NCBI GenBank assembly: GCA_001724265.1 | Contig: MEDY01000197.1 | Location: 1-64,000 of the forward strand | Origin: Rhizaria sp. SCN 62-66 | Lineage: Eukaryota | DNA length: 64,000 nucleotides | Reading direction: 5' to 3' | Part shown: piece after piece, positions 3,916 through 58,334 of the stretch | How positions within the stretch are numbered: position 1 is the stretch's first letter | How the letters are laid out: each line of letters begins with the position of its first letter | Program-made: the position numbers and the translations under genes | The notes under the pieces: generated by a model | What the model was told of the DNA's origin: nothing | Databases searched by the model: none | Seen by the model: the letters and a program-made list of their open reading frames with translations, nothing else

Positions 3916-6900
3916 TTATGCACCAGCCGCTGCTGGGGCGGCCGCAGCCGCCGCATAGTCCGCCGGCGTTAGCGCCACGTTCGCGCTGTCATCGTACAGC
4001 GTCGCGGCGTCACACTCGCGCACCATGCGATGACACAGATCAGGGTTATACCCTTCAGCATCAGGCGAACAGATCTCTGCGCACTCAAACGTGCAGCACC
4101 CATGCATCAGGTTCACGCGGTGCCCGTCCGCGGCGACAGCGTCAGGCGCGCCGTCGACAGTGGGACTGCGGCGACGGCGCGCGCGCTCACCACGGTGCTC
4201 GCGCGCGTTGCGGCGAGCCTCAGCCCAGGGACGGCGCGACGGGGAGTCGCGCGACCGCGCTGATGCAGCAGCAGTAGCGGCGGCGCCGTCAATGTTGGTC
4301 ATTGAAGCACTTGATGACGCAGTGCTTGGAGCTGCCGCTGCCATGTCATCGCTTCCGCGAACTGCAGAATAGCGCACTGCATGGGCAGCGTTGTCAGCGG
4401 TCATAGTTGCGTAGCCACGGCGCCGTGCGGGGATTGTGATCACAGGGATGTTGCTGTTGCGAGACTCAGTTCTACGAGCAGACCGGCTTGCAGTCACAGC
4501 GCTATCCCTCACAGCACCAGACTCTGCTGGAGTGTGGGCGTTAGCCGCATTGCCAGCGAGCGGCGAGGCGGCGAATTCACGTGGCGGAATCTCAGTGCTC
4601 CAGCTGTGGTTACGGCCCCACGCGCCCAGGCGACGGCGAAAGCGCGCGATTGCAGACGCAGAGTCACGCGCTGGCCCAGCAACAGTCAGCCTTGGGCCAT
4701 CACCCACCCGCGGGCACCGTGACTCCGCTTCTGCATCAGTAACAGGGCTAGCGCGAGGACCAGTGCTGGTTTCAGTGCTAGGGCGTGCGATGCCGAGACC
4801 GGGAGGCAGTGGTGACGCGGCCAGAAGATCAGAGAGCGCTGTCACAACAGCGTCCTCATCAGTTTCTTTTACTTCGCGCCACGTGTTGCGCGTGCGAACG
4901 CGGCGGTTGCGTCGTGCGCGTTCGTGCTTGCGACCGCGGCGCTTACATGCACCAGCATTTGCGCCACCGTTGTCACCGGTATCTGTAACAGCAGCCGTGT
5001 CAGGACAGTCAGCGTTGATAGTGACTGGGGCGCGGGCAGCAAGTTCAGTGAACACGTCGTCAATCTCAGCTCGATTAATGTACGTGCTGCCAGCGGTGCG
5101 GTCCTTGTTCTTCTCAGGCTCAGCGTCGCCGTGATTAGCGCGGATGTGGCCGCCGTAGATAGCGCGATTTTCGCCGGTGATACGGCCAACAGGGCCAATG
5201 CCATCGTGGATCGGGTGATACCGCAGTGTTGTGAATCGACGGCTGCGGCTGTAACGCCTGGAGCCCGCATCACTGTTTGCAGCAGCAACACCAGCGGCGC
5301 GTACACAGTTAGCGTTAGATCGATCACGAGCAACCTCGCAGTTGCTCATCATGTTCACCGAGCCAACTGCACTAGCACGGGCACCATACGCATTGTAGCT
5401 GTTACGATTGCTTGTGTCTCGACTATCGACCGCCGGAAGTGCAACGCCGGGGCTGCCAATATCGCGTTCATTTGGCTTATTACGATCGCAAACACGTCCT
5501 CTGCCACCGCACCTTTCACGGCGGTAGTCACTGTAGTCGCGGCGCCGTGGAATCTCACGTTCACCGCCCTCAGCAGAGTCAAAGAATATAAGTGTCGGGG
5601 CACCGTTGCCTGAGGCACGACTGCTAGCCACGCTGCGATCACTGGGCGTGCATGGACTGAGCTCTGTGCGCTCCATGACGCTTGAGACGACATCCGGCTT
5701 TGCGCGCCCAGTCGGATCAAACACTGCTGTGCTCGCAGGCGCGTGATCACGCACGACCAACGTTGTGATAGTCGGCTGCACTGCTGTACCGCCAGTCTCG
5801 GTCGCAGGCGGGGGGACGGCCGTTGTGTCGCTTTCGCCGTGGCCGCTGCGGTGAATCCCAGAGGGCGCTGCAGCGAGGCGCGGGGCCAGTCCGGCTCGCG
5901 CATCAGCAGCGGCACGGTTGCCGGCAGTGTCCAGCGCCGGCACAAACGAAGCTGAAGTGACCGTGCGCGGCGGCTCAGGCACAGGCGGCGCAATGCCGCT
6001 CGCGTCTGTCAGCACAGGAGGGCTCTCTACGACGGGCGTAGGCTTGATACAGCGCCTTGGATGGCGCCTGCATAGCCGCTCTAACCGCTGACGAAAGATT
6101 GGGTTGTTTGCGGACGTGTACACACGGGCTGCATCGCCTGAGGAAGTTAAGGTGCCCCGAGAAGGTAAGCCGCTGCCGGGCCTCATGCCAGGGGGAACAA
6201 CGGCGTCAGGCACGTCCGGCGCTGTCATAAGTAGCGAAACATCCGCTGCAGGAACTGGAGGTGCCCTCATCAACGCCATCGTCGTCCCACGGCGATCGTT
6301 CGAGTCGCGCTCATCGTCGCTGTCGCTGTTGCGGCGCGCTCGTGCTTCGTCGATTTCACGGCGGGAAGCGGGGCCCGGCGGTGAGCGAGAGTATGGATAC
6401 AGCGAGCCACCAGGATAAGGATACGGCTCGCGGTAGCGAACACCGCCGTCGCGGTCAGCGCGGGCGTTGCGACCGCCGTAGCCGCTGAGCTCGCGGTTGT
6501 TATCAACGTACTCGTGGTTACCGGAGCGGATGCAGTTTGCGCGGTTGCGGCTGCGGTACGGGTCACGGGTGTTGCTATTGCCACCGTAGTCGTTGCGACA
6601 GCCCCACAGCGGCTGCATCAGCGCGTTGTACGGCGCGGCGGGGTGGCGACGCGGCGCGGGGAGCTCAGTGTACGGGTCGCGCTCAATGTAGTCAAAGTAA
6701 ACAGAACGGATATCTAGAAGAACAATAAATGAAGATCAAAACACACATGTGCTGGGTGAGTAAAAACAACAAGCGCGCTCGATTAGCCCATTTTGCGATT
6801 TGTTATGGAGTTAGCGTACCTGCTACGTTAGGATTCATGGTGTACGGCGGCTCACTGTCTTCGTTTGCGGCTAAAGTAGCGGACATGACAGCGCGCCTCG

Positions 6901-8671
6901 GCCGCCACTAACCGTCAACAACCTCGCCTCGCTCGCGTCCGCGGCTGCGGCTGCGAGCGCGCGCGTAACTGTCATCGGGCACGTTAGCAGCAAACGAGTC
7001 CGGGTCAGGCAGCCGGCGAATGCGGCGGCCGCTGCGTCGCTCCAGTGCGCGCTCGCGTTCGCGACCAGAATCCCTAACTTGGCGAGCGCGCGTGCGCTCA
7101 GGGATCTCTAGCGGCATTGCAACTCCACCACTGTTGGTATGGACTGGGTGCAAGCGGCGCATGTCGCGTCCCCAGCTAAACACGCGGTCACCAGCGTTGC
7201 TTGCGGTGTGGCCAACGACCACGGTCGGCTCAGGCGAGCCATCGGTGACCTTCTCAAAGGCGTTACGCGTTGCATCAGCAGCGTCACGCGCTGCGTGGCG
7301 AACTCGCGCCGCAGCGTCACTGGCAAAATGGCGAACACGCGCTGCTGCGTTGGAGAAGAAGTCCCGCGTCGACTCGGCCGCCTCACCCGCAACTTCGCGA
7401 GTGCGCGTGGCAGCGTTACCTGCGGCCTCACGTGTACGTGTTGCAGCGTCTGACGCAAAGTCACGTGTGCGCTCTGCAGCGTCGCTGGCGACTTCACGAG
7501 TGCGCGTTGCAGCGTCAACAGCGAAGTCACGCGTATGCTCGGCAACATTACTCGCAACATCGCGGGTGCGCGCGGCTGCGTCTTCCACAAACTCGCGTGT
7601 GTGCTCAACAGCACTAGACGCGGCATCCCGCGTGCGAGCGCCAGCGTCCTCAGCCAAGTCACGAGTGCGCGCGCCCGCGTCGGCCACAGCGTCGCGCGCG
7701 TGGGCCGCAGCGTCGCTAGCCGTTTCACCTACACGGTGCGCAGCGTCCGCGGTTGAGTCGCGCGCGCGGGCAGCTGAGTCAGCAACTGCGTCGCGCGTGT
7801 GCGTCGCTGCATCGCCGACAGCGTGGCGCGCGCGGTCTGCGGCGTCTGTGGCGTAGTCACCCGTTGCAGCGGCAGCGTCACGCGCGCGGTCCGCAGCAGT
7901 GCGCGCAGCTTCACGCGTTCGGTCTGCGGCGTCAACAGCGAAGTCACGCGTGTTTGTGGCCGCTGAGTCAAGCGCGTCGCCCGTACGCTCAGCAGCACGG
8001 CGGGCAAAGTCGCGCGTATCAGCTGCCGCGTCTGAAACAGCGCTGCCGGTGCGCTAGAAAACGCGACGGCCAATGCCGCGTGTGTCGGCCGCCGCACTCG
8101 TAACACCGGCTTCGATGCGATCGTCGGCGCGCCGGACAAAGTCGCGTGTGTCCGCGGCGGCATTGCGGGCGGCGTCACTAGCGCGGGACTCGGCGCCAAA
8201 GATGGAATTGCGCGCGCGGGTATACGCATTGGCGCCAACTTCGCGAGTGCGATCAGCCGCGTCAATTGCGGTGTCGCGAGTGTGGGCAACGGCGTCAGAG
8301 CCAAAATGACGCGCGCGCGCTGCAGCCTCCGCTGCCAAGTTGCGCGAATGAGAGTACGCGTCCGAGGCCGCATGGCGCGTGTCTTCCGCGGCGCGGTCGG
8401 TTGCACGGGCAAGGCGGCGCGCGCGGGCTGCGACAGACTCCCGAGCGCGCTCCCACCACGAGCGGTGCTCTCGCTCGGTGGCTTCGGCAGTCGCAGGTAC
8501 TGCAGGAGGCGCGGAGAGCGCCGTGACGTGGTGAGTGTTAGTTGGCCAGGTCCACGGGGGTCCGATTACGGCAGAGACATAGATCGCTGCGAGGGTTAGA
8601 AGGAGAAGTTGCGTTAGGATGCGGCGGGTGAGAGTCCGCCGACTTGAAGTGAGCCAGTCAGTTCGACCCAT
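3916..8671 (-). CDS. Signal-anchored or secreted protein with about 30-35 11-aa amphipathic repeats (LEA group 3/perilipin-like), a long disordered region and a Cys-rich C-terminus; about 1549 aa if two in-frame TAG are read as sense
   Basis: Exons 8671-6820 and 6713-3916; intron 6819-6714 is GTACGC...TTCTAG, phase 1, and joins in frame. This unites the track ORFs 8054..8863, 6908..7687 and 3916..6618. In-frame TAG at 8054-8056 and 6908-6910. Hydrophobic N-terminal segment ILTQLLLLTLAAIYVSAVIG. Stop TAA. Confidence 0.75.
7250..8410 (-). repeat. Degenerate 33-bp coding tandem repeat (11-aa unit resembling DAAARTRDFAS)
   Basis: Translated units include DAAERTRDFAS, DAATRTREAAG, NAAARVRHFAS and DAAADTRDFAR. 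The repeat register continues across the TAG at 8054-8056. Confidence 0.85.
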
Positions 8672-9657
8672 AGCTCTCTGAGTGAACACGAAGAAGAGTG
8701 AAAGACCTAAAGGAATGAGCGTCGATTTTATGAATTTAAATGTTAAAAGTGAGGCTGTGAAGCAAATATAACGATTCACTACTGCCTTTTGACTTGTGTT
8801 CAGTTCGACCGTCGGACGACTGACAACCCGTGTTGCAACTTGAAAAAAATTAATACCGTACATGTACTACCAAACACTACAAGCAAGGGATGTTGACATT
8901 TTGTAATAAAAAAACACGATAAAAATAATATTGTGAAATAGTATGAAATACAAAATATTTTATTTTTACATGCATTCTGCTTCAGGAACACGTAGGGGTG
9001 TACTTTAAACTAGTCTTCGCAACTGAAAAGACCTGGAGACCTGTTGTCAAAGCATGAGGAGGGATAGCGAAGGATAGATCATACCTCATTGTATTGCACA
9101 CGACGTGCTACAAAGAAAGACAACTACTAATTAAGCAAAAGAATGGCGTCAGAGACTCTCGGAGGAGGTCTGAGAGTTGCCATACATGGTCACAATCACA
9201 GGATCTGTCAGACAAACGACTTGACAAAAATTAACACAGAAACATATCAAAGTGAATTCAGAGCATTGTAGCGTACTTACTGCAGAGATTTCGGAAGAAT
9301 AGTTCATTAACCACCGCGTCGCTGCTGCTTGCACAGTGGTGTGAAGACTCAGTTGTCCAACAAATTAGAGCAATGAGTTCATCACCACTCAAGAAAAAGG
9401 CAAAGGCAGACGACACTCAATCATGATAGGCATAAATATAATCAACATACTTTTAATCAAAACAATTGCAAAAGACTAATAGTCGCCTCAAAAAAGGTAA
9501 AGGCGTATCTTTAAAAAGTAGAATGCATCTCTTATTCGTTGATTTACGCTCGACGTTCGTGTTGTTTCACGATCCGTGCAAGATAGTTTAAAAATGATCA
9601 AAATAGCATCAAAATAAAACAAACAGTCGACAAAAAATATATCGGCTTATCAAAGTT

Positions 9658-18416: not shown

Positions 18417-18447
<31 letters not shown>

Positions 18448-19556: not shown

Positions 19557-22507
19557 TTACATATCCGTCTCACCCCAGCCGTCCCCACGCTTCACGCTGC
19601 GCCGAAGATACCCCAACTGGAACCCCTTGGGCGGCAGACCCTTGCGCAACGGCTCCGGCCACGCGTCCCCGCGCCGCGCCAGCAACGCCGCCAGCTGCCG
19701 CACCTCGCCCGCGGGCCACACGAAGACTTGGACTCCATTCATTGCACCTGTGCCGAGTCCAGCTGCGACGCCACTCGCAACGCCACCTGCGGCTGCAGCA
19801 GCTGCTGTTGTTGTTGCGTTGGCGATGGCGTTGAAAGCTGCAATAGCGGCAGCTGAGGCGCCAAGGGGAGGCATACGCGCCCACGAGCGCAGCGCATTGG
19901 CCACTGCGATTGTATCCGCGACAGTCTTTGCCGTGGCATGAGATTGCGACTCTGGATGTGGCGGCGACGGCGGCGACTGCGGCGACTGCGGCGACTGCGA
20001 GTGATTAGAACCCAGGTCAGCCTCAGCACACGCAAACATCACCTTGACTGATGACGTCAGAAATCCTTCCTTTCCACTGCTTACTTTAGCTGTCTCGTTC
20101 GTCTTTGAGTCGGACTCAGCTGAGACAGCGGCTGTGACGGCGTCAGTGAGCGACTACGACACTGCAACGGATCCGTCCCACCCCAGCACCTGCAGCGCCA
20201 GAACACACCCCTTATCCAAGTCAGCGACGGCGCCACGACTCAACGAGGAAGCGCCACCGTTCAGGGAGGAATCACTCCGGTGACCGACGGTGGAGCTGGT
20301 GTCCGGTGTCCCGACCAACAGGCAGCGCAGCGCACCGCGGGCGGAGGCGGCGGCCACGAGTGCGGCGGCCACTGCGCTCTCGAAGCGGTACGGCGCAAAC
20401 ACACCGGCGTCGCCACGCCAGCGGTTGTCGACGCTGGAGGCAGGCTCGAGGGTGTATTTAAACAGTCGAACAGCACCGGTAGGCAAAACAACAACCGTGG
20501 GCGTTGCCTTATGCGCCGTCATCGTCGTTGCATCATCAGTTGTGTGAACAACACTACCCGCCGTCGCAGTGTGATCGCAGTGACTATGCGCGCGAATGGC
20601 ACAGTCCTCGTGACTAGAACTGTGATTGTGAGCAACGTAGCCGGGAAGCCGCTTCACCGCTGTATCAAGCGCACTCTCACTCTGTGCAATGCCTTCACCA
20701 CACTGTATTGCCACAGCACTAGCCTCTGCAGCTCCCGTTGTCACTGTCGATGTTTCAACGACGACGGCGACCGCGACGGCCTCTCGTTCACCCACAAGCG
20801 TGCCGCAACCGGGGCAGTGTAAGGGCTCATACCAGCGGTGTAAGTACCCTGGCACAGACAGAGGATCAACTGATCCCGTCGGAATGCCACCGTGCTCACG
20901 GTCACCCGCAGGATGCTCATTACAGTCATGCCCACAGTCATCTGGAGCATGCCCACAGTCGCCACTGTTGTGCTCACAGTCACCTGAGCCATGACCACAG
21001 TCATTGTCATGCTTGCGTCCATCCTTGTCAGCACGTTTATCTTTATCATCATGACTGTGACCCTGGTGGCCGCCACAGCACGCTTCGTTCACAGTTGGTT
21101 CATCAACAGCTGTCGTTCCAATGTCGAGCTGTTTCAGAGCCTCGACAAGCGCGTCCGGTGAATCCAACAAAGGCACAACCGCAGCTGCAGCCGTCGCCGC
21201 GCCCGCCACCGCGCTCACAGTTGCAGCAGCGGCCTTCGCCAGCACCACGCCGTCCGCAATGCTGGCATCAGAAGAGTTGGCGGTTTGTTCGAGGGTCCGG
21301 AGAGGGGGTGCTGCGACGGCGCTCATGATGGCGCTTGCAGCGCCACCGTTGTGCACGAGAGGCAAATACCCGCCACAATGCGCGCGCACCGCAACCCGAT
21401 CACCCTCATCCGCGCCACAACTGCTGATATTGTTGCTGTTGCTGCCGCCGCTGTTGAATTCAGTCATCCCCCCCTGATCACTCGCAGTGTCGGCCGCATT
21501 TGCAGCAGTGCGAGAAGACGATGAAGTACCGTGAGAACGCGAAGTGACCGCGGCGGTGACCTGTAGCGCGGCATTCAGCGCGGACTGCGGCACTGCGAGG
21601 TCGGTCTCATGTGCGAGCAACCAGTCAAGACCGACGTATAGCCTCCCGGGCCGTGGCTGCACATCGTGCCGCGCTGCAGAAACGCGCGCGCGACGTTTGT
21701 TGTGGCAGAACCACATGTCAGCGCCCTCAGACCAGTACGGCGACGGCAGAGGCAGCACGGATATCGGAGCTTTCGGGGCGTCTCCTGCGTTGGAAGCAGT
21801 GGAAGCGTTGGCGGCGTTAGCGGCTGCGGCGGCTGCGGCGATAGTGGCAGCGCGCCACGCGGGAACGGACGGGTCAGCAGGGGCTGCGGCGGTCGCAGGG
21901 GGCTGCAGCGGGCGGAGAAGCGGCGCGTGGCAACACCGCGAGACGAGTCCAGCGGTGTAGGGTGCGAAAGTGAGCTCGGCGGGGGCGGGGAAGCAGTCGG
22001 ACTCGAGAGGCGCGGCCGGGAGCGGGCTCGCTGAGAGCGAGATACAACAAGCAGACAAAAACATACGAAGGAAAATACAATTAAAAATGGAAATATCAGT
22101 TGCTTAAAGGCTATACAGTTGGGGATACAATGTTTTAGATCATATTTGTTGTTACTGCACGTACTGGTATCTTCGAAGCGGACGCGGAGAATGAGGCAGC
22201 CAGGCGCGCGCGACGTGGCCGCAGAGTCGGGATCTACGTCGCAGTCAAACGTCGCAATAGGCAACAAGTAGTCGTTGTCAAGGTCAAGATTCACAGCGAG
22301 TGGGGACGCGCCGGGTCGCGGTGTGCGGCGTAGCGAGGCTCCGGCGGCGGCGCGGGCCGTGACAGGGAACGCGTCCGGAGAATCAGCGCAGAGGTAGAGA
22401 GTGCGGCGGGTCACCACAAGACGCAGGGATGCTGCCTCAGCGTCACAGCAGTGTACATAGACAGTAAAGCTGCGCGCTGGTGGCGACTTTTCAACAAACA
22501 GGAACAT
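19557..22507 (-). CDS. UBE3D/HECT_2 (E2-binding, Ipa1-like) family protein; about 938 aa with one in-frame TAG
   Basis: Exons 22507-22165 and 22030-19557; intron GTACGT...CAG, phase 1. Motifs: SRCCHAPLL, LPLPSPYWSEGADMWFCH, LHCPGCGTLVGE and VRLFKY. After the TAG at 20154-20156 comes the family-like C-terminus SVKVMF...LAALLARRGDAWPEPLRK...FQLGYLRR. Stop TAA. Confidence 0.8.
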
Positions 22508-22825: not shown

Positions 22826-25800
22826 ATGGAGGCGTTCAACGAAGTTTTCAATTGTCCCGGTGGGACAAAGTCTAACTCCTTCAAGCGAGACGACTCCGAC
22901 TCCGACTTCACTGACTTCGAGAGTGAGTTTGACAATGACGGCCAAGCCGCAAGCTCCGCGGCAACGGCGAGCGCAGACGGTGCAGGCGCGGTTGCTATGA
23001 CAGGTGGGCTTGCCCCAGGCCCTCAGAGATCTAACGTCACAGCCACACTGCTCGGCAGCCTTCACGAGGACAATTACGACGAAAACGACTCAGTCGTCGC
23101 CGAGCTGAACGACACCGCGCACCATCCGCAGCAGCAACAGCAGCAGCCGCCAGTCGGTGTCTACGGCCCTCCCGTGCCTGCTGGCACTAGCGCTGCTGAG
23201 CTCGAGCGCACTTCAACGCATGATGTTGCTGTCAGTGCTACTGCTGCGACAGACACGGTGAAAAGCGGTCCTGCGTCTACTACCTCCAACACCCACGGCC
23301 ACGCTCACGGTCACACTTACGGGCAAGCTGCCAACACCAGCGCCGGCAAATTGCAGGCACAGCCATTGGATGGACTGCAGCGGCAACATAGCGGTGCAGC
23401 GGGACGCGACGACACTGTGCGTAACCGTGGGATTTCGATGAAGCAAGATGACTGCGACATCTCACAGCATCCCCATACACAGTCACTTACACAGACGGTG
23501 TTACAGTCAGATTCGCAGTCGCAAACACGGATGCAGAACCAATCACAGAGGCTACTGCAGGCGAACGCGGAAAGGGAGAGTGATCGCTCGTTCCAGGCCG
23601 GCAAAGGCGACGATGATGCTAATGAAAGCAAGACGAGGGGCGTGAGTAAAGTCCACTCTAACGACACTGTGTCGTTTGCGAATGCAGCGCAGCGCGACTC
23701 GCAGCAACAACAAGCGAAAATACTGCATCCCTTGCCGATTCCTGAGTCACAGAAATTGGTGCCACAGCGACAGGCGTCAAGTGTCGCGCCATCTGCACAT
23801 GGTGATGGCATCATTTTCGCGCCTATAAATAACAACAAGTCCACATTACGTGTCATCAGTAGCACGTCACGTGACAGCAGCAAACCGCGGGCCGATAAAA
23901 GCAACGATATACCAACGGATAGCAAAACAACAGAGAACGGCGAAAGCAGCGCGCCAGTGGAGCAGCCTGGTGCGGGTCATGCGCCCGCTCTCGGTGATCA
24001 CAATCCACTGAATGATTCGCGCGCATCTGAGACGTCTTGGAACACCTCACTTGAGAAACTGCCGCATGCCAATGTTCCCCTGACGCGAACGTCTTCCGTG
24101 TACTCCTCCTCGTCATCTGCACAATCGCAGTCGCAAGCACAGTCTCAGGTACACGTACAAGCACATGCACAGGTACAGGCGCAGTCGCAGGCGATGAAGG
24201 CTCAGACGAAGTCTAAAGATACGGGACGGCTCAAGAGCTCTTAGTTTGCTGCCCAGTCTGCCCTACCGCACTCACCGACAGCGCCTGCGAAGATCGAGCC
24301 ACAGCATGACACAGCGACACCCCATACAAGGATGAATCACCCCATCTCCCAGGCTGTGGATGTCACGTTTGAAAGACATTCGATGTCCCCATAGCAGCAG
24401 TCGTCAATGGGCCGAGCGTCCGCCCCAATGCCGTTTACGGCAGCGTCCCTTACTTCTGTACAGTCTGAGAACAGTCTACAGCTGACGAGTGCCGCAGAGG
24501 CCCTGCTTGAGACTGAGGACGGCGGGCCACCGCCTCTCGAGCCTGTCAGGTCCGATGCCGGCGCCGCCGGCACCGCTGCCGGCGCCAAGGTGCGCGCGAT
24601 TGTGCAGTCGCAGCCGCCGCCGCCACTGGCGCCTCTGCCGTCCACTGCGTTTGCGGGAGATCGGAGGCACAGGAAACTTATCAAGAACAGCATCTGCAGC
24701 GACTACACCGACAGTAGCGATGATGACACCGCGGCAGCGCAACGTCCTAATGCGAGAGAAGCGCTCGCTCAACATGTCGACCAGACGTGCGTGCCACAAG
24801 TGGGAGCGAACATGAATGACGACAGTGACCACGCATCTGCGGCGCCATCCAGTGCGACTGTCAATCGGACTCACTACGACGCTTTCACCTCTGCCTTAGC
24901 GAGTGCTGGCTCCGATAGCAGCGATGCAAGCGCCATCGACGACTCCGGCGACGAGCTGATGACTACTTTCGTCAAGAAGGCTGCTGCGCGGCCGCCGTCA
25001 TCGCAGAGCGGACGTATTACGCGTCGACGTGCTGCCAGGCTCAAGATCAACCTTCCGAATGCCGTCGCTCGGATCACCAAGCTCGAAGTCGGCAGTTCAG
25101 CGGCATCCGCGGCAACTGCGCCCATGCGACCCGTGAACCAACAAAGCTCGTCAACTGACGCGAGTGCGAGCGCGGGCGCGAATGCGGCCGCTGCTGCAGC
25201 TGCTGCCGCTGCGGCGGCGTCGGCAAGTACTGGTGCTGCGAGTTCTACCTCGGGTTCCGGTACAGCGGCTGCGGCGTCGACTCGCCCTGGTAGACGTGGC
25301 CCTGGCTGGCCCCGCAAAGACAGTCTGCCGGGCTCTGGCGGTGTCTCTCGTGCGCAAAGCCCCCAAGTCCAGAGTCCTCGGTTCGGCGCATCTTCGGCAG
25401 CCAGCTCGCGTTCGACGAGCCCTCTCGGCTTGGCTCGCAACAACGCTGAGCAGCGGCGTCCAGCGGCGACGCGGAATCTGACGGGGAGCGAGCGCGAAGT
25501 CTTCTTTCAGGAGCAAAACCGCGCTGTGAGGGCGCAGAAGCAAAGCACGCGCGATGCGGACCGCGCGAGACGTGCTAATGCGCGCACAGTGGTCCCTGTA
25601 AGCGAGGCTGGTGGCGGCAGGCGTGCTGTGGGAGGCAATCGAGGCACTGCTGCTGTTCGCAAGAGCGCGACTTTGAGGGAGCTTGAGTTTGACTCGTCAT
25701 CATCGTCATCATCATCGCCATCGCCATCGTTATCATCGAGCTCTGAATCCGACTCTTCATCTAGCTCAGGCTCGTTCTCGGACGTGAACTCAAATTCAAG

Positions 25801-28544
25801 CTCTAACTCCAGCTCTATTTCGAGTCCGAGTTCGAGCTCGAGCTCAGAATCCAGTTCTTCTGACTCGTCATCGGACTCTGAAGGCGAAGTTGTCATTCAT
25901 CCCCATTTGCTGCCATCACAGTTCGTCTACGACGAGTTAGACTGTCGCCCCGCTGTTCCGTTCAGAGCAGTAGCGCCAGCCTCTCAGCAGCCCGGGCAAC
26001 TTGACGCTCAACCTGTCGCTGTTGCGTCTCCTGCGGCTGCACCGTCGAGTGCAGCGGCGACAGCAGCAGTGGCCGCTTCAGCGGCCGAGGCAGCTGAAGC
26101 TAAGGCGGCCGCAACACGCGCTGCATTGGCTGCCAATGCCGCAGCAGCAAATGCTGTCGTGACGCACGCTGCGGCCGCTAAGGCAGCTGCCGCTCAGGCT
26201 GCCGCCGCTGCGAACACCAGTGCTTCCCTCCCTTATGTGCCGGCGAATGGTAAGAAGCAAGACCTAGTTCTGGCGCCCGCAGCAGGTGTGAACACGTCGA
26301 CGACTGCGACGACTGCTACGAAGGATACTACCCCTGACCCCGTTATCGCAGCAGCTGAAGATGTTGCCACTGCAACCGCCGCTGCAGCAGCAGCAGCAGC
26401 GGCGTCGGTGGCAACATCGTCCTCAGGAGCGACAAGGGCGACGGGAGCGACTGGAGCGATAAGAGCGACACTGTCCTCAGGAGCGACAGGGGCGACACCT
26501 GCTAGTACTACAATGGGAAAGACGCCGAAGAGTACTCAGATGGTCATCTCGGTCGTGAACCCCCCTAGGCAGGCAGCGGTTGTCGCGGCTGCTGCTGCAG
26601 CAGCTGCAGGCGTGACTAGCACCAACCGTCGCGTCGTGATGAACGATGATGACGACGAGTACGCCAATGGCGTGCATGCTAAGGCACAAGCTCACTTAGA
26701 GTTCCGACTCACGCCCTACGCAGCGGTACAGCAAGACAACGCATATGCTGCTGACAAGGAGGTCACTGCCAACGCGCGGCCCAAACGCACTCGGCAGCGC
26801 AAGCGCACCTCCGAAGGTTTCGCCGAGGCGGAGGAAGCTCGTTCCCGTCGCCGCAGAGTACGCGGCTATCCTGGTGCAATCGCCATTGGCGATGAGAGTG
26901 ATGACGCCGAGATCGCTGACGACGACGATGACGACAGCGACGACGGTTTAGAGGTGACTGACGTCGTGTTGGCACAGACGCCGACACCGAAGAAGGACAA
27001 GAACGCGTCTTCCAGGACCAAGTCAAAGTCCCAGGCGAAGGCTGGCAGTGCGAGCTCAGCACCTGCACAGAAGGCACGCAAAAAGTCGGCGGCGGCGGCG
27101 TCTGACGCTGCCGCTAGGTCGGCGGACAGTGCTGCCGCTGTTGTCGATGATGGCGACGAGGAGGAAGAGGACGAGGATCGCAGTCGTGCTGCTGCAGCGT
27201 CTTCAAGTCAAAGTCGGAAGAAAAAATCCCGAACGCCGGGCCGTGGCCGTCCCCTGGGCACCCCGAATCGCCCCAAATACGACAGTGGCATTCTCGTCAC
27301 CTCCGACGGACCCACGAACTGCACTCTGTGCCCGGCCGGGTTTGGCACGTCGTCAGCACTGGTGGCACACGCACTTGAGGCCCACCAGATGCACATGTGC
27401 ATGGCCTGTGGCAAGATGTATAACAAAAGGGCGTCGCTCTGGGCGCACCAGCTTGAGATTACCGTCTGCTGGCACTGCCGCGGCAGCTCATCCGATCATC
27501 AGGTACGACGTGAGACATCATCATTCTCGTACTTATCGCATGCATTCATTGTATTGTTCCATTTGCATCTCACTTCTAATATCCTGGCAACATTACATTT
27601 GTTTAGGCCTATGCTAAGCACTCTAAACACTGCTTTATCGCCGCTCAGGGCAACAAACTCACGTGCCCTGAGTGCCCTGACGAGCTTCCGCACTACGAAG
27701 GATTTGTGTACGTTGATAATGAATATTGTACACTGCGTATATCTTCCTTGACTCAACTATCGCGCGATCTATGAGTTCTATTCTTTGTCCTCACATTCAT
27801 TTTCTCTCACTTCCTGCGTCTTTCCTGACACTTAGTAATCATCTCAAGGAGCACCACGGCGCGACTGACGCTCACTGTGCGCAAAAGTACGCGGATATTG
27901 CATTCAAATTCCTTCACTCCCGTGCTCGCAACAACATGATCTTGTCGTTAGCTGACTTTGAAGCCAAGCGCAACCACTGCAGCCGGTCTCGCCAAAGCTT
28001 CGCCGACTCCTTGCGGCCCGCACAAGGTCACAACGCGCGCATCGTTGTGCACGAGGGCTTTCAGCCAGCAGAGACGTGGGTGCGCCCTGCGGTGCCGCAC
28101 AGTAAACCGCGCATCACCATGGCCCAGGACCCTGATCCCAACTCTGTGACAGCGGCAGCAGATGATACCGCGACAGCCTCTGCGACTGAAGCTGCAGCGG
28201 CGACGAGCGGTGTTGCCGCGGATGGCGCGACCGCTGCGGACAGTGCAAGTGCGAGTGCAACCGATAGTGCGAGCAGCTCAAGCGCCAGTGCAAGTGCGAG
28301 TGCGAGCGCAAGTGCTGATGAGATTGTCAATGAGGAGAATCAAACTTCTGCGAGTGCGGAAGGCGCTGCTTTTGCCTCAGCGGCAACTGTTGCTGCTGTC
28401 TCTACCGCCGCCGCTGCAGTTGCAGTAGCTGCTGCTGCTGCCGCAACAAATGTGACTTCTGACGACGATACTATTATAGTCTCAAAGACTAGTGCGGTGA
28501 AGAGGCATTGGAAATATCATTTGGGCAACGACGACGATGACTGA
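22826..28544 (+). CDS. Large nuclear protein with AT-hook-like motifs and C-terminal C2H2-type zinc fingers; about 1828 aa with two in-frame TAG
   Basis: Exons 22826-27502, 27607-27707 and 27836-28544; donors GTACGA and GTACGT, phases consistent. Track ORFs 22826..24244 and 24407..27751 share one frame, separated only by TAG at 24242 and 24392. Motifs: RRGPGWPRK, GRGRPLGTPN, CTLCPAGF..LVAHALEAH, CMACGKMY..LWAH, CPECPDE..VNHLKEHH. Stop TGA. The exact start codon is uncertain. Confidence 0.75.
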
Positions 28545-46500: not shown

Positions 46501-46962
46501 TACTGTGCGTCTCTATCACACAAGGCGAACCACACTTTCCGCCGCTCAGGCCCCAGCGCCGGGTTCGAGCTCCTCGTCCACCCGCGCTTCGGCAAGCTCA
46601 AGGCCATGCGTTTGCTGCGCGATGTCGCCGAGGGCGAGGAGATTATGGTCGACTATGGGTACCCGCGGACGGGCCGCAGCGGGCCTGACTGGTTCAAGCA
46701 GGGCGTGCGCGACCTTCGCGACGGCAAAGACGCTGCGGGTGGCGAAGTTCCCGTGCTGAGCTCAGTTGCGTCGGCGGCTGGTGCTGACAGCGCAGGTTCT
46801 GACTCTGTTTTGCAGGAGCCGGACGCGGAGGAAGGCGCGGACGCGTCGGTTGATTTGCGCGCGGTGCCCTGGGCAACGCTACCGGCCGCAGCCAGGGCGG
46901 CGCTGCGCGCGTTTGGCGTGGCTGGCGCCGGGCCTGCCGCTGCGGCCGCTGTGTCTAAATGA
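43545..46962 (+). CDS. SETD7 (SET7/9)-like lysine methyltransferase with an expanded acidic/low-complexity N-terminus; about 1028 aa
   Basis: Exons 43545-45423, 45576-46078 and 46258-46962; donors GTACGA and GTACGT, phases consistent. The SET domain closely follows remembered SETD7: PDLWESSRV..SGEGLF..VSFYNG..WSLNGN..IDVPEPW..YCASLSHKANHTF..VHPRFG..GEEIMVDYGY. A MORN-like remnant lies upstream. Stop TGA. Confidence 0.88.
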
Positions 46963-50729: not shown

Positions 50730-51821
50730 ATGGGCTGCACTGAGAGCCGTCCGCTGGACGAGAACGCGCTGTTGGAGGCCAACGTGCCCGTCCCGCGTCC
50801 CGCCGACGACCCCGATGACGAGGGCCTCTATTAGCCCGTCTCCCCCATCTCCCCCTCTGCCTCCCAGCAGCCGCCGCCGGACCCCGCGCCCGCGCCCGGC
50901 TTTGCCCCGCCGCGGCAGCCGATCCCGGGCGCGGGCGTGCGGCCTGTCAGCGACCTCGCGGCCCTCGCACAGCGCCGCGTCGCTCAAGCCTAGGAGCAAC
51001 GCCTCCACGACGCTCGCGTCCAAGAAGCAGAGGCTGCGAGGGTCGCGCTAGAGCAGCGCGCCGCCGCAAAGGAGAAGGTGCGCCGCGCGCTTGCCGGTGC
51101 TACGGCTGCGGACCTTCCAGGCGCGCAACAGCCCGTATCAGGCAGCGTTCTGACTGCGACAGGAGCATCAGCATCAGCATCGTCACCCTTCACAACCACC
51201 ACAACCACGGCCTCTGCGCCTGCTTCGATGGTTGTGCCGTCGCCGTCCCCGCCCGCAGCACACGCCGCCAGTGCACAGACCGCTGTTGCTGCCGCAGACG
51301 CGGCCGCCGCCCCCGCAGCAGCCGCCTCAGCCTCGAATAGTGCGAGTACGAGTGGCAATGATGCGAATGTACTGCCTGCGACAGTACTGACCCGCAGTGC
51401 ATCGCTTGGTCTCTCATTTACACCCGGTGGTAACATGATCGTCGCTCTCCCAGGCTCATCCCGCAGCGCGTCACGAGCACCCTCACGTGCGCCCTCCCCC
51501 GGCATCGCGCAACAGCAACAGCAACATCAGTCCAGCTCCAGTGCGTCGATGCTGTCGAGCAGTATGCAGTCGCGGCCCCCCGGCCCGTCCTCAGCGCTTT
51601 CAGGCGCGTCATTAATCAAAGCCACCATGGGTGCCCGCTCAAGTGCAACCAACAACAACAACAACAACAACAACACTACCAACAACAGCATCAGCAGTAG
51701 CGGCTTAGCTTTGTTGTCCAACTCGCGACCTGGATCACGCACGTCTAGCCGCCCCTCCACTGCACATGCGCCCATTTCACAGCCTCTCTCTCCCACCGCA
51801 GCCACCGCCGCAGTCGCCGCC

Positions 51822-51853
<32 letters not shown>

Positions 51854-54221
51854 GACGCAGTCCCTCGCCACCAGCGCCAGCGCGAGTGCGAGTCCGAGCG
51901 CGAGTGCGAGTACGAGCGCCAGCGCGAGTGAGAGTGCCACTGCGAACATGGGCGCGAGCAGCTCCCCGACAGTCGCGTCTGCGGCGCGTGCGAGCGTCAG
52001 CGCTAGCTCCAGCTCCACATCGAGCGCGGCGTTTGCGTTCGCCGAGACTGCTGCGCACAGTGACGCGCCCCCTCGCAGGCCCGGCACGCCCGGCCCCGCC
52101 TCCAAGGCCGCCGCTGCCGCGATGGCCGCCGCAGCCGCCGCGACTGCGAGCGCGACTGCGAGCGTCAGTGCAGTGCGGGACACGGGGCGCGAGGCCGCTG
52201 ACGGCGCCGGGCCTGCGATGGCGCTCGACCCCGATATGACCGACTACGACCACACCGACGCCGGCGAGGCCCACAGCGACGGTGACGACGATGCCGATAG
52301 TGATACAGGACTGCCATATATCGCACCTAGCGCACACTTACACTCGCACTCGCTGTCAAATGCGCTGCGGAATGGCTCTGTGAACTCATCAGAGAACGGC
52401 CGCTTGAACAACACCAACGCCAGTGCAAGTGCTAGTGCGACTGCAGGTTCTGGCGCTATTCTGCCGGACAGGGCGGCAATCACCGCGTCACGCCCTAAAT
52501 CAGCCTCGTCCTCCGCCTCCGCCTCTGCTTCCGCTTCGGCCGCCGCGTCGCCCTCCGCCGGCGCGCTCGCCAGTCAAACCGGAAGCTTCGCCGCACTCGG
52601 CTCCACAACAGCAGCAACGACGCCTTCACACAGCAACACTCTTGGTGCGACTACGTCTGTATCGAGCGCGGCCCCGTCGCGTCCCGGCTCAGCGCTGCGC
52701 CGCCAGCCCGTGTATCTCCCGCCGACACCGGCATCTTCGGCACACAGCGCTAACAGCGGCGGCGGCGGCGGCGGTGCGCAGAGCACTGGCATTGGTGTCG
52801 GCGGTGTGATGGCGATGGGGCCACTGTCGGCCTCGACCTCGGCCTCAGTGTCGGCGTCTGTGTCGGTCGCCAATACGCCTCTCAAGCCCTCACGCTCGGC
52901 CAACTCCACCGCCGCAGCTGCAACCGCAACAAGTAACGCGAATATTGCGGCCAATACAGCAGCTGGAGGGGCGTCCATGCTAGCGACGCCGTCGTCTGTT
53001 GCCGGCAGTGCGCCACAGACTACCGTCCGTGGGTTCGGCGGCAATTCAGTACTGCGCCCTAGTAGCGAAGTCCCGTCCCCACTGCGACCGACACTGCTGC
53101 TGCGCACAGGCCGCCGCCATAGCAGCTCCGACGACGACTGCTCTGGCACGGCGACGCTCAGCGAGAGTGACTACTCGATGACTGAGCCCCACACGGACAC
53201 GGCCGAGACTGTTCGGTCGTCGGTCAGGCTCGCGAACGCACTCGGGATTGGTTCCCCCGGTGAGGCGGAGGCGCAGTCGCAGGGTCTGCTCTCGCGCATC
53301 GTCTCCCGTGTCTCACACTCTCAGCAACTGCAACAGCAAATACAACATCAGCAGCAACATCAGCAACAGCAGCCGAATTCGCACCGGAATCCCCACGCCC
53401 GCGCTGCAGCCGCCGCTGCCGCCAAGGCCGCTTTGGCAGCCCCGCAACAGCACTCGAGTGCGGCGCCCTGCACTAGCGCCGCGAGTGGCGGTCTCTTGCG
53501 CATGTCTGTGAACGTCTCAGCGCTGCCCGCTGCTCCGAGCCGGTCGCTGTATCTGCACGGATCGTCGGCGGGCTCGTCGGGTCCCGTTGCGCCGTACGCG
53601 TCGGAGAGCTCGCCGCTGGCTATGTCGCCGCTTATGGGGCCGCAGTACGCGCCGGTGCGTTCGATGCCCCTGCTCGCCAACACCACCATGTCACACAAGA
53701 CCAACAACGCTAACAGTAACGTCACAGCGTCTGCGTCCGCGAATGCGTCTGCGAATGCGTCGAGTGCGAGTGTGAACAGTCGGTGGACGTTCGAGCATCA
53801 ACAAGACGGCAACGGCTGCGGATCTAAGTCATCGGCTTTAGACGCTCAGACGACTGAGCTACAGCAAGATAGCATGCAAAAACAGCAGCAACAGCAACAG
53901 CAGCAGCGCCAGGAGAACGAGTGCGTGACGCCCGACGCAGACGCCACCGCGCCCTCTGCTCTTAGGGCGACTGGGGCTGCTGCGGCTGGCGCAGAGCAGA
54001 CGCCGCCGCTGCCGTCGCTACCCGCTCCCGGTGTCACTCTGTCGCACATGTCCTTGACCGACGACCGCTCTCGCCACAGCGCGTCATCCGCCACGTCGTC
54101 GTCGCTGTCGTCTGCGGTGCTCACGCCCGCGGCCGCGCCCGCGTCCATGCTCGCCGCGTTTGCGATTGAGGAGACGGGCATCGAGCTCGAACTCGACAAC
54201 AGCAGCGCCTCTGCTCACCCG

Positions 54222-54306
<85 letters not shown>

Positions 54307-57300
54307 GTGTCGTCGCTCGATGCGACCGCGTTGCGCAGTGTCAGCAGCCGCAGCGACGACACCACCGGCGATCATGCCGACACAGAGTGCGTTTCCCCCG
54401 GGAAACCCCAGGTGCCCGACTCCAGCTCCACAGGCTCAGGCTCGGTGCCCAACTCGCTCTCCGGCACTAGCTCGTTCTCTTGCGGCGCCAGCGCCAGTGT
54501 GAGCTCCACGGTCGCCAACTCCCCCACAGCCGCTCTCACCACAACAACGCAAGCTGCCAGCGGTGCCGTCGCCGTCCCCGCATCAAGCTCAGCCCCCGAC
54601 GCCGCCCCCGACGCCGCCGTCGCCACCACCGCGCACGCCGCCGCTGACGCCACCAGTGCCGCCGCCGCCGCAGCCGGGGCCATGGCGGCCGCCGCCGAAG
54701 CCGTGGTCGCCGCGATCACCGAGCTCCCCTGGGAGCTTTCCCTGGCTTCCGCGGCCACAGCGCGCGCCCCCGACGCCGGATCCGCTCTCGGCGCTGTCGC
54801 CGCGCTGGCCAAAGAGCTATGCGCGCGGCCGAGCGCGATGGAGCGGCAGACCCGTTATTTCTCCCTCGGCCAGGGGCTGCCGCGGGCGCCGGCATGGGCA
54901 CGGCAGTCGCAGTCGCACGGGGCCCGCAGCGACTCCGCGGCGCCGCAGCTGACGCTCACCGTCGCCGAGGCCGAGGCCGCGGCGGCTGCGGCGCAAGAGC
55001 AGGCACAGACCGACGCCGCAGGCGTGCTGCCCGAGTGTGAGGCCATGTCTGTCGCACGCACGCACGCGACCATGCACCGCTTGACGGAGCCTGACAAGGA
55101 CTGGGTTGGCGCCCCGACGCCGCAGCACCCGGACGCGTACTCAGACCGCGAAATTGTTGCTCTCTTGCACCGCTGCACCGCCGCCGACCACCGTGCCAGC
55201 GCTGATATCAGTGTCACTGAGCCGAGAGTGCATACCTCGGCCGCAGCGAGCCTCTACTGGCGGCGCGCGCCAGCAGAACGGAGCGCTGGCTACCAGGGCC
55301 TCGCAGGCAAAGTCGCTATCCCCGGCGCGGCCACTGCACTCTCGCGCGCACAGTCGCAGTCGCGCCCCGGCTCACGCAGTGCGTCCCGCAGTGCGTCACG
55401 AAGTGGATCACGGCAGGGTTCTCGCGCCGGCTCGCGCCACAGCAGCCGCCGCAGCAGCGTCGTCGCTGGCTCTCTGACCACCGCGTCAACCGCGTCGCCC
55501 GCTGCCGTCGCCGCTGCGGCGTCGTCGGCGCTGGCGTCGGTCCCCGCGAGCTATCGGTGCACGATCCGCGAGTCCACATCTGTGGCGACCAGTGGTGTCA
55601 CGCGTACCATGGCCGCGCGCGTACTCGTCGCTGGGTTTCTCTCGCGCCTCGCCACCCAGCGCTTCTCGGCCGCGTTTGTAGAGGCGATCGGAGCGCATGA
55701 GACTGACGCCGCCGCCGACGCGGACAGCGGCCCCGGCGGCGCGCCCCCCGCGGCCACGGCCGAGGAAATCGCGAAGGCCGACGGCGAGGACGCGGCCGAC
55801 GCACAGGCCGCCGCGACCGCTGCCGCCGCCGCCGAAGCCGCGGCGACCGAGGCCGCGGCCGCCGCGGGGTCCGACGAGAGTGCCGCCGCCGCTGCTGCCG
55901 CGTCCGCCGCCGCCACCGCGGCTGCCTCGCTGTCGCCGTCGACCGCCGAGGCCCGCCGCAGCCCGCGTCTGCTGATCTCACTCGCACGCGCGCGCTCCGC
56001 GATCGACGCTGCTGCTGCCGGCAACAACAAGAGCGCGCAGTCCGCCGCGATGTCCGCGCGCGACGCGGCAATCCTCTCCCGGCTTTCTTCCGCCGCGCCC
56101 GCGCTGTTCGCGTTCATCGCGCGCACCGCTGACCTGCGCACGGTACGCGTGACCGACGCTGCCGACTACGCACGCTTCCTCACCGCACGCCGCGAATTCC
56201 ACGCCGCGGCCGGCACCGCGCCGACCGCCGGCGAGGACGACTGCCAGGTCGAGCGCGTTGAGCTGCGCGCGCAGCTGGGCGACGCGTTCCGCCGCGAACA
56301 CCCCGCCACGATGGCGCTGCTGGACCGCGTGGCGCGCGTGCGTGGCGCCTTCTACGCACTGCCCGTGCCCGCGGCCAACGCGAGCCCTGCCGCGGCGGCC
56401 GCGCTGGCCAACGCGCCGCTGCGCGCGACGACGCTGTGGAGCTACGACGGCGAGCGCCGCGAGTGGCGGTTTGAGTGGCTCAAACGCCGCGGCGCCGCAC
56501 AGTTTCTTTGGCTCGACGCCTCCGCGGGCAAGGCGGTGCGGCCGGTCGCCACGGGAGCGGCGGTAAAGCGCCCCGCGGCCGGCGCGCGCGCTGGCGGGAG
56601 TGTGGCCGGCGAGCGCGAACTCTGGCGCAGCTCAGTCTGGCTCGACTACGACCGGACGGGCCCCAATGCCTCGGCACCGGGCGGGCTGCCTGCGAAGTCG
56701 AACGACGCGAAGCTCGTGTTCCAGGCGCCCCCACCTCCTCAGTATGGCGCCGCGGCGGCTGGCGCGGCGTGGACCAAGCAGACCGCGGTGAGCGGCGTTG
56801 CCCCGGGAACGCTGCAGTACGCGCGGTGGCTCGCCCGCTCTGGCCGCGCACCGCCTGTTCTCCCTCTTGCCGCGATCCCGCTCGACCTCCCGGCCGCGGG
56901 TCCCCTGCGACTTAACTTCGAGATCGACGTCAAGTTCCTCGCGTGGAGCATCTCCCTCCCCGGTGTCGACATTGCCGTGCGCGCGCGTGACGTGCACCCG
57001 CTGTACCACCACTTGCCAGCGCAGGCCCACGGTTTGACCGCGGCTGACCTACCGGCACCGCGGCGCGCGCTCGTCATGGCACTCACTCACGCACAGCAAA
57101 AGCTCCGCACTCTGACCGCGGCTGGCGCTAGTAGCAGCGACACCGAGATTGACGAAGCGACCGCCGCGGTCGCCACTGCCGAGGCCGCGTGCCATGTCGC
57201 CGCCGCAGCACCCGCAGAAGCCGCGCTTGTCTCAGCGGCAGTTACGGTGTATGACAACGCGTTGTCGCAGCCCGGCGCGCGCGCCCGCGGCTGGGCTCCT

Positions 57301-58334
57301 CCGTCGGCCGCCTCTCAGGGCGCCTCCGCGGCCCGCGCCGCCACGGCCGCCTGTGCCGCGGCGTCTCCCGCGGCGTCTGGGACCGCGACGACGGCGCGTG
57401 TCTCCGCCGCGGGCGCCTCCTGGCCCACGGGGGAGTGGGCTGGCCGCCGCCCCGGCTGCGCGCGCGATGCGGTCATCTGGGCCAGCGGCGGCGGCGGCGC
57501 GCGCGGACAGCAACTGGGGTTCACTACGGTCACCACGTTCCGCCTTGCCGCCATGGCGCTGTCGCCGATGACCAAAGTCGCGCTTATGGTCATGGGGCTC
57601 AGCGACCTGGTCGATGTCGCCATCAAGTCCACGGAGATCACACTGGCGCATTATGCACCAGTGACCGCGGATGGACCCGCTGCGCCCGCGGAGTTTACGC
57701 CGATTGACGTAGACACGCTATTGCCGCTGGCCACGGTCTTTGATGCCGCGGCGAAGCGCGCCGCCGAGGCGCTTGCGCGGGTCAATACGAAGTCTGCCAC
57801 TGTGCAGGGTGAAACAGCGGTCGTCGCCAAGGCTGAGGTCGAGAAGAGTGTCTACGATAACGTACGTCAAATGATTTTCTATTTTTCATCGCCCAATTAT
57901 AATATTTCTTTAATATGTATCTGCTGTGGGATTTAATTAATTGTATCTCACTGTATTGCATGCTTTGATTCATCTTGTTTGTTTAGCTGTTGACGTCGCC
58001 GCCCGCAACGCTGATGGTTCCGTACAATAAGCCCGTTGTTGAGCTTTTTTTCACCACATCATCGCCCATCTCCTCGTGGGTGCAGAAGTTTATGGTACGT
58101 TATCACCCATATTAACCCAAAGGAATCAATTCTGCGACAAGTGTTAGCTTGATCGATCTTTGGATAGCACTCTCCTCACTCACCCATCACCTCTTCGCAT
58201 ATTTCATTTTCCGATTTTGTTTGCTTCTTACGTAGGCCGGTAACACGACGTACTACTTGGCGCGTTGGTTTTGCATGATGCGTTTTATCTACCGCTTGAA
58301 TCTCGCACTCGTACACGCTGTTGAGGCCACGTAA
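50730..58334 (+). CDS. Very large (about 2440 aa) protein of unknown function starting with the dual-acylation-like motif MGCTES; two in-frame TAG and one frame break at an AAC tract
   Basis: ATG at 50730 is in frame with track ORF 51078..54470 through TAG at 50832 and 50991. The frame switches to ORF 54160..57936 at the (AAC)28 tract. Exon 1 ends at 57861, followed by exons 57987-58094 and 58236-58334; both introns are GTACGT...TAG, phase 0. Stop TAA. Confidence 0.65.
54222..54305 (+). repeat. Perfect (AAC)28 microsatellite within coding sequence
   Basis: 84-nt uninterrupted AAC array, read as poly-Asn in the upstream frame and poly-Thr in the downstream frame. Confidence 0.97.

Follow-up and report, generated by a model that had tools for sequence, protein, structure and literature searches.

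UAG as a probable sense codon

In a 64,000-base stretch of DNA filed under Rhizaria sp. SCN 62-66 (contig MEDY01000197.1 of assembly GCA_001724265.1, positions 1 to 64,000 of the forward strand; the whole of this stretch is called the window below), UAG probably stands for an amino acid independently of UAA, with UAA and UGA remaining as stops, which would be a rare sort of change in the genetic code. The window is eukaryotic nuclear DNA. It is without N and carries long open reading frames (ORFs) on both strands, with a G+C of 60-70% in the coding stretches and AT-rich spacers, and all counts given here refer to this single 64-kb window. That UAG is probably sense follows from the presence of TAG inside intact genes, at seven sites in four genes (Table 1), together with its absence from gene ends. 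A sequence-only reading of the window had proposed just such an uncoupled reassignment. By every test that we ran, UAG is translated through and UAA and UGA terminate, a pattern that true reassignment would share with efficient or context-dependent readthrough.

Each of the seven TAGs, whose positions and strands had been given correctly by that reading, is in frame with a long ORF that extends past it, and the triplets that follow them are CGC, TGG, TCG, TTT, CAG, CCC, and GAG, as had been listed. The further claim that the frame goes on as coding-like GC-rich sequence in all four genes is borne out by both codon-usage scores and G+C. In a curated coding set of 15,586 codons, somewhat fewer than the roughly 17,000 first estimated, we count seven in-frame TAGs and neither a TAA nor a TGA, in agreement with the claim that these two would be wanting. 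Off-frame stops are frequent in the same set (TAA 23 and 125, TGA 216 and 449). The gene ends tell the reciprocal story. Fourteen of them can be defined, rather than the 15 of the sequence-only reading, and as that reading held none is a TAG: nine genes end in TAA and five in TGA. If TAG terminated 20-30% of genes, the probability of finding it at none of 14 ends would be 0.044 to 0.007. Two TAGs that might be taken for terminators fall outside coding frames. The ORF of a protein kinase exon stops at TAG 41491-41493, which falls within an AT-rich GTACGT intron, and TAG 54468-54470 closes the frame-0 ORF of gene 4 at a point where the coding frame has already been switched, at an upstream (AAC)28 run.

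As a control, each stop codon in turn was treated as sense and the resulting extensions were scored by codon usage. Reading TAG as sense unites coding-scoring segments of 49-1158 codons in the four genes; the stop-free segments between TAGs measure 270/381/34 codons in gene 1, 649/198 in gene 2, 475/49/1118 in gene 3, and 72/52/1158 in gene 4. These TAG-joined segments score 0.16-0.31 bits per codon and thus resemble the ordinary coding sequence of this window. When TAA or TGA is the codon read as sense, frames are prolonged by 7-59 codons, and in one case by 194 codons that score -0.24 bits per codon; apart from two extensions (16 codons at +0.19 and 27 codons at +0.32), the scores are about 0.06 or lower. 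When all six frames are compared, the frame of the TAG is the top one for 8/8 whole flanking segments, although in the tail of gene 2 it ties or is slightly worse in two of three sub-windows; for calibration, among 239 windows of 50 codons known to be coding, the true frame comes out on top in 205. The base composition beyond the codons differs likewise: G+C in the 150 bases downstream is 0.30-0.51 for real terminators and 0.52-0.81 for the seven in-frame TAGs. UAG hence lies inside genuine coding sequence at all seven sites as judged by frame score, and in gene 2 as judged by homologues too.

A conserved domain that continues beyond TAG in gene 2

Gene 2, which encodes a UBE3D/HECT_2-like protein, is the strongest single case. 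Its homologues were collected by an exhaustive phmmer search of the read-through protein against 1.84 billion representatives, which returned 13 proteins at E<=0.001, two of them being the window's own pieces (636 residues up to the TAG and 115 after it). A single protein of 801 residues (P0126) matches both sides of TAG 20154, with the HECT_2 motif region at E = 7e-19 and a C-terminal segment at E = 1e-7. Another, a 233-residue fragment (P0127) from a GC-rich and more closely related organism, is collinear across the TAG without a break. Its blocks 'VFAPY.FE', 'GCVLAVQVL', 'VKVLFA', and 'WP..VRALA.VL..R..AWP...PPQGFQLSFLRR' follow one another in this order, with the position of the TAG between the second and the third. 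The conserved segments of gene 2 that come after the TAG are 'VKVMF' and 'WP..VR.L..L..R...WPEPL...PPKGFQLGYLRR'. Two full HECT_2 members (P0130 and P0131), which extend to positions 369 and 367 of the 369 of the profile, align with this post-TAG part, and two of its residues, L795 and P803, are invariant in 7/7 aligned family members. With collinear homologues on the one hand and post-TAG HECT_2 segments on the other, TAG 20154 therefore falls within a conserved domain, the last part of which is encoded in the same frame beyond it. When the read-through proteins and the pieces after the TAGs were scanned with Pfam, nothing emerged beyond HECT_2 in gene 2 and a weak C2H2 match in gene 3.

The other three genes

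In gene 1, exon 1 opens at ATG 8671 with a signal- or transmembrane-like start and goes on as 11-residue repeats of the form 'TRDFA.DAA'. The repeats stay in register and in frame on both sides of TAG 8054, which occupies a variable repeat position (D, A, E, or T elsewhere). For the second TAG of this gene, the remaining stretch of exon 1 (6820-6907) has frame 0 as the top of the six frames (7.8 versus 4.1 for the next). A consensus GTACG donor closes the exon that bears both TAGs, and exon 2 adds 931 codons in frame: with the acceptor AG at 6715-6714, the exons join in phase, G + AT giving GAT, as read from the sequence. As an observation on the protein itself, exon 1 (over 6911-8671, minus strand) holds about 45 tandem 11-residue 'TRDFA.DAA..' units, fused to a 931-residue part without a known domain. 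From its repeats, the protein looks like an amphipathic-helix repeat protein in the style of LEA proteins or apolipoproteins; matches of the Apolipoprotein/Synuclein/YtxH type are weak and all under the cut-offs.

Gene 3, which encodes a long low-complexity protein, carries two TAGs. For the 49 codons between them frame 0 scores 7.3, and the other five frames are negative. This inter-TAG stretch of 160 GC-rich bases differs from the spacers between tandem genes here, which are AT-rich and span 470-990 bases. Farther downstream, GTACG introns begin at 27503 and 27708 (3' exons read by eye).

Gene 4 has both TAGs near its start. Frame 0 is the best of six before the first TAG (50730-50831, 12.6), between the two (50835-50990, 15.3), and after the second (50994-51197, 11.2). 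The 68 codons that follow TAG 50991 are coding-like and there is no in-frame ATG up to 51198, and a downstream start in this gene is therefore unlikely. Its end at TAA 58332 agrees with the sequence-only reading. Within the gene, the coding frame shifts by +1 across a perfect (AAC)28 microsatellite: the score of the old frame falls from +37.5 ahead of the run to -27.1 over 54306-54467, where the new frame has +11.6, followed by +39.7. No GT...AG intron is evident at the switch; a genuine frameshift, slippage, and an error in the sequence are all conceivable causes. With TAG read as Q (table 15), the first 400 residues of gene 4 had no match at E<=0.01 when 8000 candidates with lengths of 220-700 residues were scored, a search that was probably swamped by low-complexity words.

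Table 1. Positions of the genes, in-frame TAGs, and other features of the window (introns read are AT-rich, 105 to ~180 bases long, and start with GTACG)
Feature	Positions	Strand	Remarks
Gene 1	3916..8671	-	exon 1 8671-6820, intron 6819-6714, exon 2 6713-3916; end TAA
Gene 1, TAG 1	8054..8056	-	final position of an 11-residue repeat unit
Gene 1, TAG 2	6908..6910	-	29 codons upstream of the GTACGC donor at 6819
Gene 2	19557..22064	-	UBE3D/HECT_2-like, 835 codons; end TAA
Gene 2, TAG	20154..20156	-	within the HECT_2 (UBE3D-like) domain region
Gene 3	22826..28544	+	long low-complexity protein, C2H2 zinc fingers near the end; TGA at 28542
Gene 3, TAG 1	24242..24244	+	
Gene 3, TAG 2	24392..24394	+	150 bases past TAG 1
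Gene 4	50730..58334	+	GTACGT introns 57862-57986 and 58095-58235 (3' exons by eye); TAA at 58332
Gene 4, TAG 1	50832..50834	+	codon 35 after the MGCTES start
Gene 4, TAG 2	50991..50993	+	codon 88, in a helical 'RRVAQA*EQRLHDARVQEAE' stretch
(AAC)28 microsatellite	54222..54305	+	perfect run; coding frame of gene 4 shifts +1 across it
Intron	6819-6714	-	gene 1
Intron	~41531-41356		
Intron	27503 onwards	+	gene 3
Intron	57862-57986	+	gene 4
Intron	58095-58235	+	gene 4

The TAGs in other DNA samples

Consensus errors are one conceivable origin of the TAGs: the window was assembled from a metagenome, and the odd +1 switch at (AAC)28 is a sign that its sequence may contain flaws. Yet the contigs of a DNA run from a different study (X2) show 0 differences to the window over 18750-21861 and 21840-24350, and those of two further runs (X3 and X4) show 0 differences over 7383-9356 and 19412-20555; the latter two are identical piece for piece despite their different listed studies and years, are probably a single data set filed twice, and are counted as one. 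TAGs 8054, 20154, and 24242 are thus unchanged in the contigs of other DNA samples, and over 6001-26000 no differing letter is listed at any TAG, the DNA pieces shown there including none for 6908 or 24392. An 1100-base metagenome contig (L001) is identical to the window over 19412-20511; when metagenome contigs were scanned with the N-terminal part of gene 2, it was the sole match, and no related species came up. Proteins predicted by gene callers on other contigs end at the very same codons: at TAG 20154 on three contigs, at 24242 on six (P0263, 472 residues), and at 8054 on five (P0264). Taken as an account of all seven sites, such errors have a very small probability in our estimation, and for these three sites they are largely refuted.

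Among eight sequences looked up, four of which were present, in clusters of one or two members, there was no strain variant that replaces a TAG by a sense codon. Run X2 does differ from the window elsewhere, with four differences in gene 1 (at codon positions 2, 3, 2, and 1) and six in a 3142-codon gene, phases being assigned by hand; they show no third-position excess and are too few for a test of selection.

Transcripts, introns, and alternative gene models

Another way to dispose of the TAGs is to suppose that the gene models are wrong, the TAGs being either spliced out, in short or non-canonical introns with one for each close pair, or set between independent frames, with an upstream ORF and a main ORF in gene 4 and two genes each in genes 1 and 3. 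Several features lend themselves to this supposition: the members of the close pairs are 150 and 159 bases apart, which is near the length of introns here; an ATG lies 4 codons past TAG 24392 and another 7 codons past TAG 6908; and GT...AG pairs are visible by eye around most sites. However, the known introns are AT-rich and begin with GTACG, and the flanks of the TAGs, with a G+C of 0.52-0.81, give coding scores in the TAG's own frame; no GTACG donor or AT-rich island is found at any TAG. The spacing argument fares similarly on the side of independent genes, with AT-rich intervals of 470-990 bases between tandem genes versus 22-160 GC-rich bases at the TAGs. The ATG-less coding-like codons after TAG 50991 and the repeats of gene 1, which keep their register over TAG 8054, also speak against separate frames.

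The RNA data bear on the same supposition. They consist of assembled contigs compared over 20 kb of the window (6001-26000). In a polyA RNA run (X6), a 330-base contig covering 20090-20419 retains TAG 20154 with 0 differences and 0 gaps, unspliced, the TAG being flanked by 64 and 263 bases. A second RNA contig, 8032-8454, includes TAG 8054 and is likewise unspliced, with just 22 bases on the low side. For TAGs 6908, 24242, and 24392 no bridging RNA contig is listed in the compared part, which leaves room for altered models there and is not evidence of absence. In a bin made up nearly entirely of spacer (8669-9335, 667 bases), RNA depth is 0 versus 5-8 in DNA runs, which weakly fits an RNA origin of the X6 contigs. 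On balance, wrong gene models strike us as improbable.

Two candidates of this general kind were examined and set aside. Short in-frame introns (GT...AG of 36, 42, and 45 bases near 8054, 6908, and 50832) are attributable to chance, as they lack GTACG and AT-richness and the RNA contigs are unspliced. A transposon-like insert bounded by the TAG pairs has no trace by eye in the form of similarity or terminal repeats between the inter-TAG stretches.

The donors in this window are strikingly uniform in themselves: GTACG followed by T, C, or A is seen at 6819, 27503, 27708, 41531, 45424, 46079, 57862, and 58095. Such uniform GTACG donors could act as a signature for other contigs of this organism.

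Low usage, termination context, and incomplete decoding

A number of observations weigh against an established reassignment and are best taken together. The first is rarity: usage is 0.45 TAG per 1000 codons, and TAG occurs in 4 of 14 genes with defined ends. This low usage lowers the claim of an established reassignment, and not the claim that UAG reads as sense. The second is context. A pyrimidine at +4, the weakest termination context, follows six of the seven TAGs, at a background where 39% of codons begin with a pyrimidine (P = 0.017); a purine stands at +4 after 13 of 14 real terminators, and the contrast between TAGs and terminators has a Fisher p of 0.00085. The bias suggests leaky termination, as a fully reassigned codon should lack such a context. 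The sequence-only reading had argued against leakiness from the want of a shared readthrough motif; this argument stands insofar as no common hexamer follows the seven TAGs, and falls at +4, where the pyrimidine recurs. The TAG pairs lie close together (24242/24392 and 50832/50991, at the distances given above), with a simulated P of about 0.007 for at least two such pairs among seven random sites, a post hoc figure; this clustering is predicted by none of the hypotheses considered here. Homologues support one of the seven TAGs, 20154, and the column at that TAG is unconserved, with A in P0127 and V or G in P0126, so that no amino acid can be inferred for UAG. Full RNA bridging is available for 20154 alone, and the X6 library may contain DNA. 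The sample of gene ends is small (n=14). As for the decoding apparatus, the window contains no tRNA gene with anticodon CUA: ARAGORN gives one hit, a doubtful tRNA-Ala(GGC) of 90 bases at 12919-13008, which lies inside the 3142-codon ORF and is probably a false positive, and Rfam gives nothing. The eRF1 gene is not in the 64-kb window.

The contextual bias is the chief attraction of the view that the code is the standard one, with leaky or programmed readthrough at these sites and TAG still terminating genes elsewhere in the genome. The +4 pyrimidine at six of seven TAGs versus one of 14 terminators is what it would predict, and the rarity of in-frame TAG is expected if each costs yield. In standard-code eukaryotes and viruses, programmed UAG readthrough depends on a weak context and near-cognate tRNAs, and it usually affects one site per gene near the 3' end, where it yields a low-efficiency extension. 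The window resembles these systems in having in-frame UAG in a weak termination context, but differs from them in that parts of a conserved domain and more than 1000 codons lie downstream and in that three genes have two TAGs. Each of these three genes would need two readthrough events, with losses that multiply, and in gene 2 the short product would lose part of a domain, as the TAG lies upstream of conserved segments. TAG moreover terminates none of the 14 genes, and the seven contexts share no motif past +4. We therefore regard ordinary readthrough under the standard code as unlikely.

The preponderance of TAG among nonsense codons has a more trivial potential source. With the codon usage of this window, random nonsense mutation would yield TAG in 56-58% of cases, making TAG the commonest product, and seven TAGs out of seven would arise with a P of about 0.02, a small but still appreciable value that counts against an altered code to that extent. 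The sites could accordingly be nonsense alleles or young pseudogenes, that is, truncations of dispensable, fast-evolving, low-complexity genes. Most of the affected proteins are indeed low in complexity and without a Pfam family, and a dead gene is expected to accumulate several hits. Against this stand, besides the low P itself, the 49-1158 downstream codons that still score as coding and have acquired no frameshift, TAA, or TGA, and the invariant family residues retained in the post-TAG part of gene 2. Four dead genes out of 14 in a compact region are implausible, and identical TAGs recur in samples listed from 2015 to 2025. The probability that we would assign to dead or dying genes is quite low.

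The reading that we prefer is that UAG is decoded. A tRNA with the anticodon CUA, or a near-cognate tRNA plus weakened recognition of UAG by eRF1, would insert the residue. The very low usage and the recurrent pyrimidine after the TAGs suggest that decoding may still compete with release and, if so, the change would be young or incomplete. A more specific and decidedly tentative proposal is that the window records a natural intermediate of codon reassignment (an "ambiguous intermediate"), uncoupled from UAA: UAG would have been purged from gene ends and be decoded with the release factor competing, and a few UAGs might survive in disordered, fast-evolving segments, at places where termination is weakened by a +4 pyrimidine and the new codon is tolerated by the protein.

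The organism and the remainder of the window

The genes identified in the window include an AGC-type protein kinase split by an intron, Mak16, the UBE3D/HECT_2-like protein, and the C2H2 zinc-finger protein. From the reading of translations, we also take three further products to be a putative TIM16/Pam16-like mitochondrial import subunit, a HAD phosphatase, and a SET-domain exon. The best named matches of the kinase are 45-51% identical and come from animals and plants, and those of Mak16 are from oomycetes, at 53-55% identity. In a Mak16 tree of 24 rows, 21 of them named proteins picked by hand among 120 listed and none of them rhizarian, amoebozoan, or alveolate, the window clusters solely with two environmental proteins and lies outside oomycetes, ochrophytes, green algae, fungi, and animals. 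This tree, as a comparison of protein sequences, leaves the lineage unplaced. The window is present in metagenome runs of bioreactors, wastewater, and activated sludge, which come from several studies and are listed 2015-2025.

The largest uninterrupted ORF has 3142 codons (9658-19086, minus strand); it has no Pfam match at E<=0.01, and RNA contigs map on it. On the plus strand at 43545-46962, the ORFs 43545-45423, ~45530-46078, and 46258-46962 look by eye like the exons of one gene joined via GTACG introns; this putative gene would combine an acidic YL1/BUD22-like region with a SET-like C-terminal exon that ends at TGA 46960, again as judged by eye. The two ends of the window (1-3900 and 63000-64000) are AT-rich, with a G+C of 0.46-0.52 and short overlapping ORFs on both strands.

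Relation to known UAG reassignments and significance

The precedents that the sequence-only reading had drawn from Iotanema, a rhizarian, and ciliates agree with the respective reports (PMC5304391, PMC11687900), which between them give one rhizarian, one fornicate, and three phyllopharyngean ciliate origins for a lone change of UAG with UAA kept. In one further ciliate, UAA and UAG reportedly encode different amino acids. The closest of these in its general setting is the rhizarian exLh (Sainouroidea), in which UAG encodes Leu and UAA and UGA are stops (Panek et al. 2017, PMC5304391). That report gives 384 UAGs in 71 genes or transcripts (~5 each), mostly at conserved Leu columns, and bona fide terminators that are UAA in 56 cases, UGA in 15, and UAG never (PMC5304391). 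On these figures, the window is like exLh in that UAG is the sole in-frame stop and never a terminator, in that UAA is preferred (here TAA 9, TGA 5), and in that both come from an uncultured protist detected in mixed sequence data. It differs in that its 15,586 codons include just seven TAGs, and none of these falls at a conserved column. A link to Rhizaria is not established by our analysis, the Mak16 tree having had no rhizarian row.

In the fornicate Iotanema spirale, UAG encodes Gln, UAA is the main stop, and UAG makes up about 8% of Gln codons (PMC5304391). The change of UAG is uncoupled from UAA there too, and use of the new codon is fairly low in both; UAG, if it were Gln here, would make up about 1% of Gln codons (7/674). 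Iotanema is moreover an anaerobic metamonad, whereas this window encodes what is presumably a TIM16/Pam16-like mitochondrial subunit. Among the phyllopharyngean ciliates, UAG encodes Leu in metagenome-assembled genomes from TARA, and Hartmannula and Trochilia use it for Gln (McGowan et al. 2024, PMC11687900); in those genomes 78-91% of genes have an internal UAG, and suppressor tRNA genes were found (PMC11687900). They are similar to the window in that UAG alone is reassigned, UAA is the preferred stop, and the discovery was made in metagenome-derived genomes. They differ from it in that here four of the 14 genes whose ends are defined contain TAG and the window yielded no such tRNA gene, and nothing in this GC-rich (coding 60-70%), multi-gene, intron-bearing window suggests a ciliate.

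A different class of codes uses stop codons as both sense and stop, as reported for Condylostoma and Parduczia (PMC4967479), karyorelicts (bioRxiv 10.1101/2022.04.12.488043), and Blastocrithidia (PMC12153298). The likeness lies in the decoding of a stop within genes, and the +4 bias here hints at a competition between decoding and release. Those codes reportedly draw on all or several stops, and a codon that is sense there serves as a terminator too; here UAG alone is involved, and it stands at 0/14 gene ends. The type of change would thus be one already known from exLh, Iotanema, and the phyllopharyngean ciliates; what the window would add is a lineage that is new and unplaced and that may be at an early or ambiguous stage.

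A practical corollary concerns public data. Standard gene callers cut genes at TAG, and database proteins of 636, 472, and 269 residues end at one; since the cut is made at every TAG, the proteins of this organism in public catalogues are split or truncated. If the sense reading of UAG is true, an independent origin in a GC-rich, intron-poor lineage would add evidence that UAG and UAA are mechanistically separable. In that case, the low usage combined with the +4 bias could show the capture of a stop codon, a stage that is usually inferred and not observed. Should the proposal of an intermediate hold as well, this stage would be open to observation in an organism that recurs in wastewater reactors, in runs listed from 2015 to 2025.

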